DNA of 6,633 nt from an uncultured Gammaproteobacteria bacterium (GCA_964522265.1 CAZFVS010000057.1:1-6633); one strand, 5' to 3'. Shown: positions 1 through 6,633, numbered from the stretch's first letter. Numbers and translations are program-made. Notes: a model not told the origin generated them from the letters alone.

Positions 1-782
1 CTTGCTTGCAACTCGGCAAAATCTATATACAAAGATACTATCAAATTTAATTGGTTGAGCTCATTTTCAGTTAAATAATTTTTAGCCACTGCTATATCGT
101 CGGTGGTAATATAATCGCTTTTAAAACTCATCAGACCCATTAATGGTTTTTTACTATCTGCCCGCTTATTTATAATTTCGGCTGCCGTATTTCCATGTAC
201 CGCAAAATGCATTTTATTTTGCACTGTAGCAAAAAACTTCTGAGTAAAATGTGCGTCTTGTTTATAATCAATGCTTGTTGCGTAAATATCAGTTATTTTC
301 TGATAAAACATCCGCTCACTGCTCCGAATATCACGCACTCGTTGTAACAGTTCTTGAAAGTAACGTGCCCTACCGCCAGCCTGCTTGAGCCGTTCATCAT
401 CCAGCGTAAAGCCTTTTATCAGATATTCCCACAGTCTTTCTGTTGCCCATTTGCGAAACCGCGTTCCCTGCTCAGATCGCACACGATAACCAACTGCTAA
501 AATAGCATCAAGGTTGTAGTGTCTTACATCACGAGCAACTTCTCTGGTGGCTTCCTTTTGAACTATCCGGAAATTCCGGACAGTTGAATTTTTATCTAGT
601 TCTTGCTCCAAATAAATATTCGCTAAATGCTCATTAACTGTACGCACATCAACATCAAAAAGCTCGGCTATCAATTTTTGCGTTAGCCAGACATTCTCAT
701 CTTCAATTCTGACTCGGATTTTTTGCTCATCACCAAGAGCTTGATAGATGACAATTTGTGGTTTTTTAGTTTCTTTTTTCAT
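1..782 (-). CDS. RhuM-family protein (Virulence_RhuM-like), N-terminal 260 codons; the C-terminus lies beyond the left window edge
   Basis: Hand translation of the reverse strand from ATG (complement of 780..782) is open all the way to position 1. It reads MKKETKKPQIVIYQALGDEQKIRVRIEDENVWLTQKLIAELFDVDVRTVNEHLANIYLEQELDKNSTVRNFRIVQKEATREVARDVRHYNLDAILAVGYRVRSEQGTRFRKWATERLWEYLIKGFTLDDERLKQAGGRARYFQELLQRVRDIRSSERMFIRKITDIYATSIDYKQDAHFTQKFFATVQNKMHFAVHGNTAAEIINKRADSKKPLMGLMSFKSDYITTDDIAVAKNYLTENELNQLNLIVSLYIDFAELQA. The blocks HYNLDAILAVGYRV, GTRFRKWATERL.EYLIKGF.LDDERLK, DIRSSE, TDIYATSIDY, FFATVQNKMH.A.HG.TAAEII and AKNYLTE.EL..LN.IVS.Y.DFAELQA are the conserved signature of the RhuM family as I recall it. 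The ORF is not in the supplied track because it has no stop inside the window. Confidence 0.88.
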   Translation of the reverse strand, partial: MKKETKKPQIVIYQALGDEQKIRVRIEDENVWLTQKLIAELFDVDVRTVNEHLANIYLEQELDKNSTVRNFRIVQKEATREVARDVRHYNLDAILAVGYRVRSEQGTRFRKWATERLWEYLIKGFTLDDERLKQAGGRARYFQELLQRVRDIRSSERMFYQKITDIYATSIDYKQDAHFTQKFFATVQNKMHFAVHGNTAAEIINKRADSKKPLMGLMSFKSDYITTDDIAVAKNYLTENELNQLNLIVSLYIDFAELQA

Positions 783-913: not shown

Positions 914-2248
914 ATGGACTCCTCCCTGCTTAGGCAGAAATATTTTGATTTTTTTACAAAAAAGGGTCATAAATTAGTTCCCTCATCATCCCTCATCCCT
1001 TCAGACCCTACTACGCTGTTCACCAGTGCCGGCATGCAGCCTATGATCCCTTATCTTTTGGGAAAAACCCACCCGCAGGGCAAAAGGATAGTCAACTCCC
1101 AAAAGTGTTTCCGCTCCCAGGATATCATGGAGATCGGAGATAACCGCCACACCACTTTTTTCGAGATGCTGGGCAACTGGTCATTCGGGGATTACTTTAA
1201 AAAAGAACAATTAAATTGGCTTTTTGAATTTTTAACACAGGATTTAGGGCTTAACCCCAACAAGCTTTATGTAACCGCATTTGAAGGAGGCAGCAGTATA
1301 ACAAAGGATCTGGAAACTGTAAGCATATGGCAAGAAATTTTTGAAAGTAAGGGGATAAAAGCGGAAATCGGAGAGCGGATTTTTCTCTACGGCGCTGCCA
1401 AAAACTGGTGGACCAGGGCAGACTCTCCGGAATCTATGCCTGAAGGTGAGCCGGGCGGGCCTGACTCTGAAGTATTTTATCTCTTTGACCAGATTTCCCA
1501 TGACCCAAAGTTTGGCAAGGAGTGCCACCCGAATTGTGATTGCGGAAGATTTTTGGAGATTGCCAATTCAGTTTTTATGCAGTACCAGAAAAAAGACCGG
1601 GGTTTTATCGGGCTGCCTCAAAAAAATGTTGATTTTGGAGGAGGGCTGGAGAGATTAACTGCCGCCTGCCAGAATCAACCGGATATTTTTAAAATAGATC
1701 TTTTCTGGCCTATTATTGAAAAGCTTAAGGAACAACTTAAGGTCAAATATGATGATGAAAAAATTACAGCATCACTTAGGGTTATTGCAGATCATATCAA
1801 AGCTGCAATTTTTTTAATCAAGGACGGGGTTACACCATCCAACAAAATGCAGGGGTATGTTTTAAGAAGACTGCTTCGCCGGTGTGCTGTAAAAATCCAC
1901 ACCATACAAACAGACTCTGAAAGCATCCTTTCAAAACTGGTTGACCCTGTTTTGGATATTTACCAGGGAACCGGTTACTTCCAAACAAGCGACTGGGATC
2001 ATATTAGGCTGATGATTGAAAAGGAGCTTGTGAAATTTAAACAGACCTTGAAAAGGGGCCTGAGGGAGATTGAAAAAGTGGATAAAGTAACAGACAAAAT
2101 AGCATTTGACCTGTACCAAAGTTATGGTTTCCCTTTTGAACTTTTAGAAGAATTATTTTTAGAAAAAGGGCAGAAAATAAGCAGGGAGGATTTTAATCAG
2201 GAATTCCAGAAACACCAGGAACGTTCAAAGTCTTCCTCAGTTATGTAA
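914..2248 (+). CDS. alaS: Alanine--tRNA ligase, truncated 'mini' form: aminoacylation and tRNA-recognition domains only (444 aa); no editing or C-Ala domain
   Basis: Class II AlaRS signature blocks are present: LRQKYFDFFTKKGHKLVPSSSLIP, DPTTLFTSAGM, SQKCFRSQDI.EIGDNRHTTFFEMLGNWSFGDYFK, GGPDSEVFY, EIANSVFMQY, DFGGGLERL. The helical tRNA-recognition block LRVIADHIKAAIFLIKDGVTPSNKMQGYVLRRLLRR and FDLYQSYGFPFEL are also present. The ORF ends with TAA at 2246..2248, about where the beta-barrel/editing region begins in full-length (~870 aa) enzymes. Confidence 0.93.
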   Translation: MDSSLLRQKYFDFFTKKGHKLVPSSSLIPSDPTTLFTSAGMQPMIPYLLGKTHPQGKRIVNSQKCFRSQDIMEIGDNRHTTFFEMLGNWSFGDYFKKEQLNWLFEFLTQDLGLNPNKLYVTAFEGGSSITKDLETVSIWQEIFESKGIKAEIGERIFLYGAAKNWWTRADSPESMPEGEPGGPDSEVFYLFDQISHDPKFGKECHPNCDCGRFLEIANSVFMQYQKKDRGFIGLPQKNVDFGGGLERLTAACQNQPDIFKIDLFWPIIEKLKEQLKVKYDDEKITASLRVIADHIKAAIFLIKDGVTPSNKMQGYVLRRLLRRCAVKIHTIQTDSESILSKLVDPVLDIYQGTGYFQTSDWDHIRLMIEKELVKFKQTLKRGLREIEKVDKVTDKIAFDLYQSYGFPFELLEELFLEKGQKISREDFNQEFQKHQERSKSSSVM

Positions 2249-2251
2249 CTA

Positions 2252-2530
2252 TTATTTTTTCTTACGCCCTTTTGGGAGGACAAAGGCTACCAGGTCTCTC
2301 AGGGACCTGATCGAGGATTTTGCAAGGAATGCCATAATTGAAGCAACTACTATTTTTGAAGGCAGGTCTATCCTCCTTGCCACATCCTCAGTCTCCTCTA
2401 AAATCTTATCCGCCCTTTTCAACCCTTTTCTGATGGCGATTAATATTATCAGCACAACCAGTGCAATCAGCACAAAAATAACAGTCCAGACTGAAACTAA
2501 TATCACCAGCACAAATTCAAGTATTCCCAT
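2252..2530 (-). CDS. Small membrane-anchored protein (92 aa): N-terminal ~32-residue hydrophobic segment, amphipathic helical region and KKK tail; DUF948-like architecture, function unknown
   Basis: The ORF fills most of the gap between alaS and the RodZ-like gene. The N-terminus GILEFVLVILVSVWTVIFVLIALVVLIILIAI is strongly hydrophobic, followed by charged, helix-prone sequence (RKGLKRADKILEETEDVARRI). There is no SD. The call rests on architecture only, with no family-specific motif recognised. Confidence 0.5.
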   Translation of the reverse strand: MGILEFVLVILVSVWTVIFVLIALVVLIILIAIRKGLKRADKILEETEDVARRIDLPSKIVVASIMAFLAKSSIRSLRDLVAFVLPKGRKKK

Positions 2531-2590: not shown

Positions 2591-3229
2591 CTACTTTTCA
2601 ACAAGTACTGTCCTGTCTATCTTGGTACTCTGCCCAAATTTACTGGTCGCCACAACAGTTATTATGTTCGAGGAGGAAGAAAGTTTAACTTCCTCCTGGA
2701 AATGCCCGTTTTTATCTACCCCTATATCCTGGTTATTTACCATTATTTTATTCTCAGGATCCGTATTCCCTTCAACTAGTACAGACGGTATCTCAACTGA
2801 TTGACCATCCTTGGGACTCACCACTTCCAGATTTGGTGCCCCAATAAACTGCCGGTATTCCAACCAAAGATAGGTAAAAAAACTCAATATAATTATGGCT
2901 GTAGTAAGCCAGATAACTCTGGCGGGAGTAATACGCAGTCTGCTCTCTTTAAGCGGTTTGGAAAAACTTTCTAAAACCACCGGAGGGTGTTTCCTTGCTT
3001 CAAAATCCCTTCTGAACACCGCTAAAAGTTTCTGTGTGTCCAATCCTAAAAACCTTCCGTAGTTTTTAATAAACCCCTGAATAAATGTTGCAGGCGGCAG
3101 TTTGGAATAATCATTTGCTTCCAGGGCCTGGAGAAGCTCTTTGCGAATCTTGGTATTTTTCTCAACATCTTCCAGCATCAGCAGTTTGCTTTCCCTTGTT
3201 TCTCTCAAAATCTGCCCGACAGTTCTCAT
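2591..3229 (-). CDS. RodZ-like protein: N-terminal HTH (HTH_25/XRE-like), one transmembrane helix and an extracytoplasmic Ig-like beta domain
   Basis: The N-terminus VGQILRETRESKLLMLEDVEKNTKIRKELLQALEANDYSKLPPATFIQGFIKNYGRFLGLD matches the RodZ-type HTH pattern (...I....L.ALE..D...LP...Y..GF...YA..LGLD). The TM helix is VIWLTTAIIILSFFTYLWL. The C-terminus LEVVSPKDGQSVEIPSVLVEGNTDPENKIMVNNQDIGVDKNGHFQEEVKL...NIITVVATSKFGQ looks like a beta-sandwich. The ORF track starts at TTG 3232; I prefer the adjacent ATG at 3229 (MRTVGQ...). Confidence 0.82.
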   Translation of the reverse strand: MRTVGQILRETRESKLLMLEDVEKNTKIRKELLQALEANDYSKLPPATFIQGFIKNYGRFLGLDTQKLLAVFRRDFEARKHPPVVLESFSKPLKESRLRITPARVIWLTTAIIILSFFTYLWLEYRQFIGAPNLEVVSPKDGQSVEIPSVLVEGNTDPENKIMVNNQDIGVDKNGHFQEEVKLSSSSNIITVVATSKFGQSTKIDRTVLVEK

Positions 3230-3237
3230 CAAAATGA

Positions 3238-3291: not shown

Positions 3292-3320
3292 TTGCAATGT
3301 CTTTTTTTATAGGGTATAAT
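3292..3320 (+). promoter_or_regulatory. Candidate strong sigma70-type promoter for the giant ORF: TTGCAA-17 nt-TATAAT
   Basis: TTGCAA at 3292..3297, exactly 17 nt of spacer, then consensus TATAAT at 3315..3320. The ATG at 3335 is 14 nt downstream of the hexamer, and the intervening tctttcttgcacat is pyrimidine-rich with no SD. The predicted 5' UTR is therefore only about 7-8 nt. Confidence 0.55.
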
Positions 3321-3334
3321 TCTTTCTTGCACAT

Positions 3335-6300
3335 ATGTTCACAGAGAAAGAAGTATCGTTATTTAGCATACTAAACAACCTACTAGCGAATAACCAACTC
3401 GAGCTGAAAAAGTTAACAGGGGAAGTGAAGGAACCGTTTTTGAAAAAATACCCTACTTCTATTATTAATATTAAATCTTTTTACCCAAAGGAGGACTTCA
3501 CAAAGGTTTTAGACCAATCTATCTACAAACCTATCTACAACCAAAGCGTTAAACTGCCAGTTTTTAATCCTAAAAAACCTGCTGCTGACATCCCGGTAGA
3601 GGTATCCATGAGAGTATCCGAGCAGCAAAAAATAGCCGGCCAAGCGCTGACTATAGCTTCGTTAAAAGGTACGCTTGACGAAGAATACCAAAAACATAAA
3701 AAAGCGTTAATCAAAACCGCCCTCGAAGACCAGTTTCCCAGGGTCAAACAGGAAGCTGCCATACAACTGAGGCTTCTTGCCAACTCCGGGCTCGACGGAG
3801 AAATTGTCAGACATATGGCTGCGTTAACCCGCAGGATTATCCGCCAAAAAGGACAAATAGCCAAACTAAGCACTGAGCAGGCATTAGCTATCCGAACCAT
3901 CTGTTCATTAAACGATTACGATGCCCAAAGAGTTGCCATCCAATTGGTAACATCCGAGGCTTTAGACCCCAGGATTAAAAAATTGGTTCTGAGAAAGTTA
4001 TGTCAAACAAGTTTCTTTAATAAATATTATGGGATTTCAGATTTTATCAGTCAGTATACTTCTCAAGACAGCAGGGAGATTCCATGGGATAAATTCAGAC
4101 CCTTAATAAGTTTATATGCCCATCCCAGCAGAGAACTCCGCGAAACAGCCTTTGCATCTATTTCACCGGTAATGAGCAGGGGGGGTTATTGGCTGTCAGA
4201 TGCTATTGCTGATTACCGGGATAAAACACCAAATATTCCTGACAGGGCATTCTTGCAAGTACTCGCACTGTCAGAAAATAGCAAAATACCGATCGAAAAA
4301 TTTGATGCTTTATTCAGTTTAGCAGATAAAAACAGAGCGGTCTCGGAGGAACTAACCATGCTCCTGACTTACCTTCTGGAAAAAGATTCTTGTTATGATA
4401 ACGGACATTATGAACGTGGTCGGATTTTACGGGCACTTTTGCAAGACGATCCCAACCCCGATTTTTTATCTGTCTTCATAAGCTGTCTAAAAAAATCCCT
4501 TTTTATGTTGAGGCAAGCTAGACTAGATTATCTAGAATGTTCAAAATTTATCAGCTGCTTATACGACCCTTCAGGTTCAGCATATAAGCGTAGTCATTCT
4601 TTGGCAGCAGCCTGTGCTGCAAAACCCCCATCTCTGCAAGTAATTGACAAAGCTTTGGAAAAACAGATTGTTAAAAAGATCAGGCAGATCCTGCCCAAAG
4701 GATCTGATGTTAAAAAAATAGCCCAACTGCACTCTTCATGGGACGGCATGGAACCTTTTTTAATTTATATCTCCAGATTATATGATCACCAGTCAGACTT
4801 ATACAAAGACGTATTAGCATTGATGGGTGAGATTATAGCCCATATCGATCCCCCTTCTTTTGAAGAATGGAAAAAATGGCGTTACGACCTGAACAATCAA
4901 AAAGTGAACGAACAGGTGGGTTTTTTAAGCAGTGAGACCTTAGATGCCTGGATATCTGACTATGTTGTGGACTTATCAGATATTCAAAGCGAAGATGTAT
5001 CTGAAAAGATTATTAAAATTAGGGAGATTTTTGACCAGTTTGCTGATTCTGGTCTGAAAGAAACAGGGTCTGTTGACATCCGACAAATTGAGGATAAGCT
5101 TAGAATTTTGACGAAATTTATCTCCTTGAAGGACGATCTCGAACTTGCAAAACGTGCAGCAAAAAGTATTGGGGAGTTGAATGCAACCGAATGCCGCAAA
5201 AGGCGGGCATTGAAAAAAGCCGGGTTCTCTACTCTTAAAACCACAGGCCAAATCCATTCTGAAATTGGCAAAATAAGAGAAGGGTTGGGTGCTGAAAATG
5301 AAGTTAAGATAAAAAATCTTGCTGTAGCTGGCATTATAAAAAAATACACACAGGCTAAAAGCCACTTGGAATATCTCAGATCAAAAAATATTCAACCCAC
5401 GGGTGAAGATTTAACCCATGTTTCATTACTGCAAAACCAGCTCATCGGTACCTTGGGTAACGGATTTGAAAGTCTGCTGAAAGATTATCAAAATATCGCT
5501 GTTTTGACAGCCAACCTGCCAAAGATCATTGACCCTAAACTGGCTGATTTCTTAAGCAGGTACGGGTTAAAAAAATCTTCCCCTTCGGAAAAACTTGAAG
5601 CTGTAATAAATTTTATCCAGAATGGTATTATAGAATTAACTCATACAGAACCTATGCTGGATTCAGATGAAAGAAGAATTTACAAAACCATCAAAGATTT
5701 AAAAATACAGAAGGAAATCCTTTCCCTGCTTACTGCAAAACCCGCAACCTTATCAAACAAACAGCTTAAAGAAAAACTAGCTGTACTTGTAAAAGGCTTG
5801 GGTGAATATAAGGACTTAAGTACCAAATTGGCAGTGTTACAGGAAGATGCGGGAAAAGAGCATTCGGGTAAAAACAATGGTCTGGTGTTTATATTCACCG
5901 ACCACCCTCTAGTTGCTCTTACCGTAGGAAAATATCCTGCGGGGGCTGTCTCCTGCCAGAGTTATTGGAACGGCAGTGATTCTCTTGCAGCATATCCTGC
6001 TGATGCAATGACCAAATTATGTCTTTTAGTTGATAAAAACAGCCTGCCTGAGGATGTAGCCGAAAAGCTGGATAATGCAACCACCAATGAAGAGAAGTTA
6101 GCAGTATTTAACAGTAATACTTATGCCTTTTTAGATGCCATGGTTGCCAGACGGGTTATTAAAATAGTCAGAAATGATCAAAACCAGGAACCATATATCT
6201 TTCTTGAACCGGTTTATACAAGCTACAACCAAACACTGATGATTAATTATTTAAACAAGTTCGCTCTGGGGTTTCTTCATCCTGCAACAGGCTTGCCACT

Positions 6301-6451
6301 GGTAAGAGGTGGCGGAAATATGCGTGTTAGGGTTGCCACCAGCCGTAATAGAAGCCAATATGAAGACGGGGAAAAGGGCGGTCCTAATAATTGCGGCATG
6401 GGTTCTCAAACAGATGAATACACCATGCCTGCCCAATTTTTAGCGGCTTGA
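3335..6451 (+). CDS. Giant orphan protein (1038 aa): N-terminal HEAT/ARM-like repeats, long K/E/L-rich helical (coiled-coil-like) middle, C-terminal globular Cys-containing domain and a Gly/polar tail; function unknown
   Basis: The ORF is an uninterrupted 3.1 kb with a consensus promoter immediately upstream. HEAT-like units are visible: LEDQFPRVKQEAAIQLRLLANSG, NDYDAQRVAIQLVTSEALDPRIKKLVLRKLCQ, YAHPSRELRETAFASISPV. I see no signal peptide, TM segment, Walker A, HExxH or CxxC motif. The alternative start M92 (ATG 3608) has a GAGG 5 nt upstream, but promoter placement favours 3335. Confidence 0.88.
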   Translation: MFTEKEVSLFSILNNLLANNQLELKKLTGEVKEPFLKKYPTSIINIKSFYPKEDFTKVLDQSIYKPIYNQSVKLPVFNPKKPAADIPVEVSMRVSEQQKIAGQALTIASLKGTLDEEYQKHKKALIKTALEDQFPRVKQEAAIQLRLLANSGLDGEIVRHMAALTRRIIRQKGQIAKLSTEQALAIRTICSLNDYDAQRVAIQLVTSEALDPRIKKLVLRKLCQTSFFNKYYGISDFISQYTSQDSREIPWDKFRPLISLYAHPSRELRETAFASISPVMSRGGYWLSDAIADYRDKTPNIPDRAFLQVLALSENSKIPIEKFDALFSLADKNRAVSEELTMLLTYLLEKDSCYDNGHYERGRILRALLQDDPNPDFLSVFISCLKKSLFMLRQARLDYLECSKFISCLYDPSGSAYKRSHSLAAACAAKPPSLQVIDKALEKQIVKKIRQILPKGSDVKKIAQLHSSWDGMEPFLIYISRLYDHQSDLYKDVLALMGEIIAHIDPPSFEEWKKWRYDLNNQKVNEQVGFLSSETLDAWISDYVVDLSDIQSEDVSEKIIKIREIFDQFADSGLKETGSVDIRQIEDKLRILTKFISLKDDLELAKRAAKSIGELNATECRKRRALKKAGFSTLKTTGQIHSEIGKIREGLGAENEVKIKNLAVAGIIKKYTQAKSHLEYLRSKNIQPTGEDLTHVSLLQNQLIGTLGNGFESLLKDYQNIAVLTANLPKIIDPKLADFLSRYGLKKSSPSEKLEAVINFIQNGIIELTHTEPMLDSDERRIYKTIKDLKIQKEILSLLTAKPATLSNKQLKEKLAVLVKGLGEYKDLSTKLAVLQEDAGKEHSGKNNGLVFIFTDHPLVALTVGKYPAGAVSCQSYWNGSDSLAAYPADAMTKLCLLVDKNSLPEDVAEKLDNATTNEEKLAVFNSNTYAFLDAMVARRVIKIVRNDQNQEPYIFLEPVYTSYNQTLMINYLNKFALGFLHPATGLPLVRGGGNMRVRVATSRNRSQYEDGEKGGPNNCGMGSQTDEYTMPAQFLAA

Positions 6452-6463
6452 TTTTTGATTTGC

Positions 6464-6633
6464 ATGTCTAAACAGGAACTGGATAATAATTTTGAACTTG
6501 ACCCATTGCTTTGGGATGTAAACCTGCGTATCCCCGGCCCCACCCCCTGTCCTCCCCAGGTTTCAAAAGCCATGTCCCACCCGATGGTTAACCACCGGAG
6601 TACCAACTATTTTATCCCGCTTGCCAGGAAAAT
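6464..6633 (+). CDS. Class V PLP-dependent aminotransferase (serine-pyruvate/alanine-glyoxylate aminotransferase-like), N-terminal 56 codons; continues beyond the right edge
   Basis: Hand translation from ATG 6464 gives MSKQELDNNFELDPLLWDVNLRIPGPTPCPPQVSKAMSHPMVNHRSTNYFIPLARK, open to the window end. The block L.IPGPTP.P..V..AM..PM.NHRS..F is the characteristic N-terminal signature of AGXT/SGAT-type class V aminotransferases. It is absent from the ORF track because there is no stop in the window. Confidence 0.8.
   Translation, partial: MSKQELDNNFELDPLLWDVNLRIPGPTPCPPQVSKAMSHPMVNHRSTNYFIPLARK

Follow-up and report, generated by a model that had tools for sequence, protein, structure and literature searches.

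The 6,633-nt contig analysed here (CAZFVS010000057.1:1-6633, assembly GCA_964522265.1, from an uncultured Gammaproteobacteria bacterium; hereafter the window) contains one long open reading frame (ORF), located on the plus strand at 3335..6451. It runs from an ATG to a TGA stop codon (6449-6451), specifies a protein of 1038 amino acids (aa) and takes up 47% of the window, figures from the first-pass annotation that the ORF list reproduced. The product, referred to below as the giant protein, is a member of a previously undescribed family, known so far only from the Candidate Phyla Radiation (CPR, or Patescibacteria), in which a solenoid scaffold appears to be combined with a GNAT-like module. 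For the protein as a whole we propose a scaffold-tethered enzyme with a GNAT-like C-terminal domain, possibly linked to nicotinamide adenine dinucleotide (NAD) or to another nucleotide; the probability of this model being correct is put at roughly 40%.

From its sequence the protein had been taken for an orphan. This was overturned by an exhaustive HMMER scan of 1.84 billion representative proteins, which returned 108 homologue clusters (defined at 50% identity) at E < 1e-3, 89 of them below 1e-10 and 50 below 1e-30. From 5.8 billion proteins, a word-indexed search retrieved the query protein alone, and three short fragments when the profile of the C-terminal domain was used; on its own, this type of search would have led to a false orphan call, which the exhaustive scan did not. 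Homologues are mostly 1000-2300 aa long. Those with a taxonomic name, which all belong to the CPR, are 'hypothetical protein' entries of Candidatus Daviesbacteria, Woesebacteria, Sungbacteria and Parcubacteria. A syntenic orthologue of 1065 aa was found in Candidatus Daviesbacteria (contig JACPKP010000002, locus L001); by BLASTP, its identity to the window protein is 57% across aa 68-1038. In both the window and L001 the gene order is that of an N-terminal half of alanyl-tRNA synthetase (AlaRS), a 92-aa transmembrane protein, a RodZ-like protein, the giant gene and a class-V aminotransferase, L001 differing by one additional 143-aa ORF after AlaRS. Comparison of the two giant genes by the Nei-Gojobori method gave an overall ratio of non-synonymous to synonymous substitution rates (dN/dS) of 0.20, an imprecise value since synonymous sites are near saturation. 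By region, the ratio was 0.57 for aa 1-67 (32% identical to the orthologue), 0.23 for aa 125-290, 0.15 for aa 431-565, 0.24 for aa 566-845 (59% identical) and 0.08 for aa 846-1038 (76% identical), the last being the lowest among the regions compared. These values indicate that the giant gene is real and under purifying selection, which is strongest at the C-terminus. A spurious or decaying ORF, the probability of which is negligible, might be suspected from the lack of any visible Shine-Dalgarno sequence ahead of the ATG (the sequence was read directly) and from the first 67-81 residues, which are poorly conserved and modelled at low confidence by AlphaFold2 (AF2). However, this is refuted by the conservation data: a syntenic orthologue 57% identical, a dN/dS of 0.2 and 108 homologue clusters, to which a confident AF2 model can be added.

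Scans of Pfam, NCBIfam, PADLOC and PHROGs gave no family match for the 1038-aa protein or for its four segments, and sequence searches of the PDB returned nothing significant for the protein, for the profiles of its C-terminal domain and middle block, or for homologues P0007 and P0026, in agreement with the earlier statement that no family could be assigned. Neither full-length homology to a characterised family nor, with a dN/dS of ~0.2, relaxed selection was observed. When 37 homologues were scanned (full-length proteins and C-terminal domains), their conserved regions matched no family in the curated libraries; the only matches were to leucine-rich repeats (LRRs) in P0089 and to an extra Acetyltransf_6 domain in P0070, both outside these regions. 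Relatives of the C-terminal domain were absent from the phage and plasmid collections searched with tblastn, two scans of IMG/VR produced no relatives, and a scan of JGI metagenomes yielded just the contig of locus L003, described below. No description of the family was found in the literature on CPR giant proteins, NAD salvage in Patescibacteria, PcfJ, DUF4132/HEAT proteins or GNAT-like folds associated with NAD.

Conservation in the family is highest in the C-terminal alpha/beta domain (aa 850-1036; 5882..6442, plus strand). The first-pass annotation had anticipated a mixed alpha/beta domain at this end of the protein, and this was confirmed by AF2, which modelled the domain alone with a predicted local distance difference test score (pLDDT) of 86.4 and a predicted template-modelling score (pTM) of 0.83. 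An alignment of 37 such domains, 28-74% identical to that of the window, contained 16 invariant columns. Across 88 near-full-length copies, G865, P868, C874, R939 and K943 were invariant (88/88), and D856, P858, G870, S873, L884, D890, L933, E958, P959, Y961, S1003, Q1008, Y1009, E1010 and D1011 were conserved in at least 90%; this conservation extends across clusters below 50% identity. C874 (codon TGC, 5954..5956, plus strand) lies in the loop motif G865-K-Y-P868-x-G870-x-x-S873-C874-Q875-x-Y877, while R939 and K943 (6149..6163, plus strand) occupy positions i and i+4 of the same beta-strand. In a third motif, S1003-R-N-x-x-Q1008-Y1009-E1010-D1011 (6341..6367, plus strand), each named position is kept in 81-87 of the 88 copies. 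When the model of the domain was compared with the PDB using Foldseek, almost all of the 50 matches listed, and all of the first 40, were GNAT-fold enzymes (AtaT, KacT, AAC(3)-Ia, GNA1, Hpa2, RimI/J), matched at Foldseek probabilities of up to 0.99, although weakly (best E 3e-3, template-modelling (TM) scores of 0.37-0.49, 6-14% identity). In GNAT enzymes, the active-site cleft is lined by the alpha1-alpha2 loop and the ends of beta strands. The conserved residues of the giant protein, when placed on the AF2 secondary-structure string, appear to map to the alpha1-alpha2 loop and to the ends of beta3, beta4, beta5 and beta6, that is, to elements of the GNAT cleft. Since the domain combines invariant Cys, Arg and Lys residues, conserved acidic residues plus a Ser, and the lowest dN/dS of the regions compared, the pattern of conservation seems closer to that of an active site than to that of a binding surface.

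The domain shares its C-terminal position, and the blocks that precede it, with the rest of the family. Mapping of phmmer domains in dozens of homologues revealed a common order consisting of a variable N-terminal extension, a block equivalent to aa ~115-350 of the query, another equivalent to aa ~430-565, a variable helical linker and a final block equivalent to aa ~840-1036, the C-terminal domain being nearly always at the extreme C-terminus. The family core is accordingly made up of a HEAT-like alpha-solenoid, a conserved helical block, a helical domain and the C-terminal alpha/beta domain of ~190 residues. Homologues carry added, variable N-terminal modules (nucleotidyltransferase (NTase)-like, LRR, or long helical repeats), whereas the window protein, which has none, is a minimal version. 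The LRRs of P0089 are N-terminal (aa 153-227). The Acetyltransf_6 domain of P0070 is a genuine extra GNAT domain (aa 1774-1916) found ~110 residues past the family C-terminal domain. In the shorter, distant members P0079, P0095, P0099, P0104, P0107 and P0108, the helical linker is missing and the C-terminal domain comes almost immediately after the block with the WRY motif.

The full-length AF2 model of the window protein, built from a 50-sequence family alignment, had a mean pLDDT of 83.6 and a pTM of 0.67. The N-terminus (aa 1-81; 3335..3577, plus strand) is poorly conserved and is probably disordered, with pLDDT values below 50 at residues 1-17 and 19-81. It is followed by a predicted HEAT-like alpha-solenoid (aa 88-410; 3596..4564, plus strand), for which AF2 gave 18 helices of 10-32 residues, from H88-111 to H399-410, at pLDDT values of mostly 85-95; on the secondary-structure string, their arrangement in tandem antiparallel pairs corresponds to that of a HEAT-type solenoid (units of about 35-45 residues), and the region aligns with an equivalent block in dozens of homologues. 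A HEAT-like N-terminus had been proposed for aa 125-290 only. The solenoid itself was supported by the model, while its extent had been underestimated; at the sequence level, Pfam HEAT models matched only aa 124-148, below their gathering thresholds (HEAT_2, 16.7 versus 27.7 bits, E 0.0094; HEAT, 13.0 versus 23.5 bits). With HEAT/ARM scaffolds such as importin-beta/Kap95, AP2 and the PBS-lyase HEAT proteins, the giant protein would share the antiparallel helix pairs of aa 88-410 at the level of fold, but structural matches were not significant, Pfam scores were sub-threshold and no known partner-binding motif is present; with the full-length model, Foldseek found nothing significant in the PDB, importin-beta coming out on top at E 0.14 and a TM score of 0.15. 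After a stretch of low AF2 confidence (aa 412-427) comes a conserved helical block (aa 434-570; 4634..5044, plus strand) with pLDDT values of up to 98 and the motif H-x-D-P-P-x4-W-K-x-W-R-Y. Among the 50 aligned sequences, W512 and Y517 are invariant and W469, P474, W515, R516, Q527 and L531 are conserved in at least 90%. This block, which is matched as a separate segment in most homologues and whose profile found no match among PDB sequences, was missed in the three-part layout of the first-pass annotation, otherwise roughly right. Finally, aa 574-840 (5054..5854, plus strand) were modelled as an all-helical domain with a 55-residue helix (574-628) and then ~10 helices of 4-21 residues, at pLDDT ~88-96; the region is variable or absent in the most distant family members. 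A coiled-coil-like spacer had been suggested for aa ~555-845, which would call for long unbroken helices with a continuous heptad register. Since only one long helix is present among ~11, and the best heptad register is not the same from one 28-residue window to the next, the region is better described, on the model, as a compact folded helical domain. The highest mean Kyte-Doolittle value over 19 residues was 1.07, which points to there being no transmembrane segment in the 1038-aa protein, and a motif search found no Walker A, HExxH or CxxC motif in it, as had been noted for transmembrane, NTPase and metalloprotease features. The earlier picture of a protein lacking a secretion signal, with a cytoplasmic scaffold presenting an uncharacterised C-terminal module, was thereby supported; sequence and model together are consistent with a cytoplasmic, multidomain protein with a HEAT-like scaffold.

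A possible link to NAD emerged from gene neighbourhoods in a sister clade of Parcubacteria-type homologues (P0007-P0017; 1340-1670 aa), the C-terminal domains of which are ~50% identical to that of the window and keep all the conserved residues. In loci L003 and L010, which represent a closely related lineage with the same arrangement, the order is nadD-nrtR-nadE-giant-pncA, and in L011 (Sungbacteria) it is nadD-nrtR-nadE-giant-x-x-pncA-nadK-nadB-nadA-nadC. Locus L007 has pncB-ADP-ribosylglycohydrolase-nadE-giant, with prs, NUDIX and phosphoribosyltransferase (PRTase) genes nearby, and L018 has giant-pncA-x-pncB-prs; in L014, NUDIX genes flank the giant gene on both sides and NAD synthesis genes are absent. 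The clusters span 421..4658 in L007, 4512..19018 in L011, 3846..13319 in L010 and 4498..9025 in L018. These CPR clusters are compact and include an NrtR-type regulator (NUDIX plus WHD_NrtR). Between nadE and the giant gene the spacing varies from about -4 to 66 nt, and the giant proteins of the NAD-linked loci, which come from four Parcubacteria-type lineages, show 40-45% pairwise identity. The nadE product of L007 (552 aa) is just 25% identical to that of L011 (653 aa), so the nadE-giant adjacency is not merely recent shared synteny; in L003 and L010 the corresponding protein has 693 aa. Because the association with NAD genes persists across deep divergence, it suggests functional coupling to Preiss-Handler recycling of nicotinamide. 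The proteins of this clade also have an N-terminal module with the motifs VV(V/I)KGSxAxAxxxGxxxxxARDxDxxF, EPExVLWD and LRLxDLGERFGIxVDD (giant genes with it are found, for example, at L007 4724..9094, L010 7572..12587 and L011 8001..12020). It looks like a minimal Pol-beta-type nucleotidyltransferase, judging from these motifs; the KGS...ARDxD module had no match in Pfam.

In the model proposed, the C-terminal domain would be the catalytic part, using on a GNAT-like fold a constellation of its own formed by C874, R939 and K943 together with D856, D890, E958, S1003 and E1010. The solenoid and the helical domains would serve as a platform on which a macromolecular substrate or partner is bound and kept in place against the catalytic module, and the variable N-terminal modules of homologues may diversify targeting or regulation. 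The chemistry would most likely be a group transfer to, or a hydrolysis on, a protein or RNA substrate, with a nucleotide-containing donor. The weakest and most speculative step is the nature of this donor or ligand, perhaps NAD or a derivative such as ADP-ribose; NAD is considered because the sister clade with a C-terminal domain ~50% identical sits in NAD salvage/regulon clusters.

Several observations weigh against this model. As indicated above, the match of the C-terminal domain to the GNAT fold is weak (TM scores of 0.37-0.49, E values of at least 3e-3). The predicted topology is non-canonical: against the GNAT core order beta1-alpha1-alpha2-beta2-beta3-beta4-alpha3-beta5-alpha4-beta6-beta7, three helices are added between beta2 and beta3, and alpha4 is missing. 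The acetyl-CoA (acetyl-coenzyme A) motif Q/RxxGxG/A was found nowhere in the 1038-aa protein by a regular-expression search, the beta4-alpha3 loop carrying instead a conserved L-E958-P959-x-Y961, and Pfam GNAT models matched none of the 37 C-terminal domains, even at E <= 10. The NAD neighbourhood, moreover, is confined to the clade bearing the N-terminal NTase-like module, which the window protein lacks, and no NAD genes were found near the giant gene in the window, L001, L005/L006, L008, L009 or L016. Since the NTase-like module occurs exactly in the clade with NAD clusters, the NAD link may be a property of the module rather than of the shared core.

The first of these points also bear on whether the domain is a true, highly divergent GNAT, using acyl-CoA or aminoacyl-tRNA on a substrate held by the solenoid, which would make it resemble the Pat/YfiQ-type protein acetyltransferases or the AtaT/TacT/Fem-type enzymes. 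The top ranks of the Foldseek search were taken by AtaT and KacT, toxins that acetylate aminoacyl-tRNAs; the added Acetyltransf_6 domain of P0070 recalls tandem-GNAT enzymes; and the giant gene lies 1.1 kb downstream of AlaRS in both the window and L001. However, two genes on the opposite strand stand between AlaRS and the giant gene, both the pyrophosphate-binding motif Q/RxxGxG/A and a predicted alpha4 are missing, no Pfam GNAT model recognised the 37 domains, and alignment of the family profile with the Acetyltransf_6 domain of P0070 by hhalign gave a probability of 0.2%. A true GNAT is judged quite unlikely. With the GNAT superfamily the domain would share the overall alpha/beta fold and the location of conserved residues on cleft elements; its topology, the absent CoA motif and alpha4, and the lack of any match to a GNAT hidden Markov model (HMM) set it apart, and an invariant Cys/Arg/Lys set like that of the giant-protein domain is not known in GNATs. 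On the basis of the topology, the CoA motif, the Pfam result and the hhalign value, we call the fold predicted by AF2 GNAT-like without assigning the domain to the GNATs. By analogy, Pat/YfiQ lysine acetyltransferases resemble the giant protein as large cytoplasmic proteins with a big non-GNAT N-terminal region and a C-terminal GNAT-fold domain of ~200 aa, and Pat is functionally tied to NAD via its sirtuin partner; in contrast, the giant protein has no acyl-CoA-synthetase-like N-domain, CoA motif, sirtuin neighbour or sequence similarity to them.

The same absences could be read as signs of a scaffold that performs no chemistry: together with a degenerate GNAT-like domain at its C-terminus, the protein would as a whole serve as an adaptor or regulatory platform to which partners or a small-molecule ligand bind. 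The motif for the GNAT cofactor is absent, neither protein nor domain matches any enzyme family, helical repeats or bundles make up ~80% of the chain, as is typical of interaction platforms, and the invariant aromatic and Arg residues of block 434-570 resemble a binding surface. What speaks against such a scaffold is that the C-terminal domain has five residues invariant in 88/88 copies and ~15 more conserved in at least 90%, Cys, Arg, Lys, Asp, Glu and Ser among them, and that its dN/dS of 0.08 is the lowest measured in any region compared, a pattern more typical of an active site. We consider the non-catalytic scaffold unlikely.

A more specific form of the enzymatic proposal is that the C-terminal domain founds a new class of NAD-consuming enzymes, either ADP-ribosyl-transferring or NAD-cleaving, with a GNAT-like fold and a Cys/Arg/Lys/acidic site. 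The probability of this is low. Known NAD-consuming families (the ADP-ribosyltransferases (ARTs) of the R-S-E and H-Y-E types, RES, SIR2 and TIR) gave no match in Pfam or PADLOC and were not among the 50 Foldseek PDB matches listed. There is a superficial likeness to the R-S-E motif in the succession R939...S1003...Q1008-x-E1010, with five residues from the S to the QxE; such a spacing is wrong for ARTs. The R-S-E ART and RES readings of the conserved R, E and S residues were rejected for their wrong spacing and for the absence of fold or HMM support. Should the NAD-consuming proposal be true, the giant proteins would use NAD, in a manner specific to the CPR, to modify a macromolecule bound to the solenoid. 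Products of the flanking genes (PncA-PncB-NadD-NadE, NUDIX and ADP-ribosylglycohydrolase), under the control of NrtR, a sensor of ADP-ribose, would then recycle the nicotinamide and ADP-ribose that are released.

The first-pass annotation had raised a possible kinship with MolR/DUF4132-type proteins, which have been linked to conflict and regulatory systems, and had proposed a comparison with PcfJ-like proteins as well. A conflict-system protein of either type is very improbable, and membership of these two families has been largely refuted by sequence comparison. In general terms the giant protein does recall MolR/YehI (DUF4132), both being large cytoplasmic proteins in which helical repeats are combined with an uncharacterised domain at the C-terminus. 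PcfJ of pCF10, for its part, has a short motif with a conserved Cys (H-C-V-G, against S-C-Q in the giant family), although its context is that of conjugative plasmids. However, DUF4132/MolR (PF13569) was matched in Pfam by neither the protein, its segments nor its homologues, and PcfJ (PF14284) had no Pfam match either, even at E <= 10. Using hhalign, the family profile reached probabilities of 0.09% with E. coli YehI and 3% with pCF10 PcfJ, the latter aligning an unrelated region that left the HCVG and Cys motifs uncovered. No PADLOC model was matched and, as stated, phage, plasmid and IMG/VR collections held no relatives. Two further observations lean towards a conflict-related protein. One is that two distant homologues adjoin a Shedu-type SduA_C nuclease gene and a Fic gene (L008 6897..7916 and L009 1133..2050), neighbours that may be there by chance or point to a defence-island setting in that clade. 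The other is that the best matches of the C-terminal domain in BFVD (E 1e-5 to 2e-3), better than any GNAT in the PDB, were uncharacterised phage proteins of 300-900 aa (A0A411CWI8, A0A8D9FQH3, A0A249Y195, A0A516LC34, A0A384ZXE1 from Dickeya phage JA29, and others). By eye, ORF10 of Cyanophage PP, which we take to be the BFVD match U5PV84 from its matching length of 419 aa alone, has motifs in a similar order (D...SSCMSS...R...K/R...E..Y...YQD). Its kinship was unproven and it was dropped as a candidate, with hhalign giving 0.1% and hmmsearch -0.2 bits; a search with ORF10 found near-identical cyanophage relatives only. A polymorphic toxin was rejected, since in the giant family the conserved part is the C-terminus and the variable part the N-terminus, the reverse of what these toxins show.

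Upstream of the giant gene, a sigma-70-like promoter candidate was found at 3292..3320 on the plus strand (TTGCAA, a 17-nt spacer and TATAAT; 10 of 12 consensus matches), ending 14 nt before the ATG, although promoter-like sites are no commoner in the whole window than in shuffled sequence. Downstream, the 5' part of a class-V aminotransferase gene (6464..6633, plus strand) starts 12 nt past the giant-gene stop, as read directly from the sequence. Its counterpart in L001 is a 376-aa Aminotran_5 gene located 38 nt downstream of the giant gene (junction at L001 10636..10675, against 6449..6466 in the window). Given these short gaps, the giant gene and the aminotransferase are probably co-transcribed; their adjacency was seen in two closely related genomes only, those of the window and L001. 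On the minus strand, between AlaRS and the giant gene, lie the RodZ-like gene (2591..3232), with an N-terminal HTH_25 domain (E 1e-22) and a C-terminal Glucodextran_B-like beta domain (E 3e-13), and, directly downstream of it and on the same strand, the gene for the 92-aa protein with a single transmembrane segment (2252..2530). Both are syntenic in L001. The conservation of neighbours about which the first-pass annotation had asked thus extends, for the RodZ-like gene and the aminotransferase, to one close Daviesbacteria relative, but not to distant members of the family.

The nearest gene upstream on the same strand as the giant gene is that of AlaRS (914..2248, plus strand; PF01411, E 1e-109), which specifies the catalytic N-terminal half of the enzyme. 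The product has 444 aa, covers positions 2-431 of the 552-position PF01411 model and lacks the editing and C-Ala domains. The Daviesbacteria AlaRS (L001 4434..5822) is likewise short, with 462 aa, and 83% identical to it, so that truncation or splitting of AlaRS seems to be a conserved trait of the lineage formed by the window and Daviesbacteria. The same 83% identity indicates that the window derives from a Daviesbacteria-like CPR bacterium. The left contig end cuts a partial gene of the RhuM family (3..782, minus strand; a 260-aa ORF), which for this reason is missing from the standard ORF list; it shares 49-57% identity with genes on plasmids that bear the annotation 'virulence RhuM family protein'. 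Plasmid-borne RhuM relatives often adjoin type I restriction-modification genes.

Small CPR/Patescibacteria genomes thus keep genes of 3-7 kb for a family described in no curated database. Its exceptionally conserved C-terminal domain, absent from Pfam, NCBIfam and the PDB, is a concrete target in the search for new chemistry, and its presence in NAD salvage/NrtR-regulon clusters of four deeply diverged Parcubacteria-type lineages provides a testable handle of a kind that is rare for CPR proteins without an assigned function. Even if the domain is not catalytic, a well-delimited new domain family (aa 88-410, 434-570 and 850-1036) is ready for curation. If it is catalytic, it would represent a GNAT-like scaffold with a new kind of active site, and would show where the coding capacity of these episymbionts goes.

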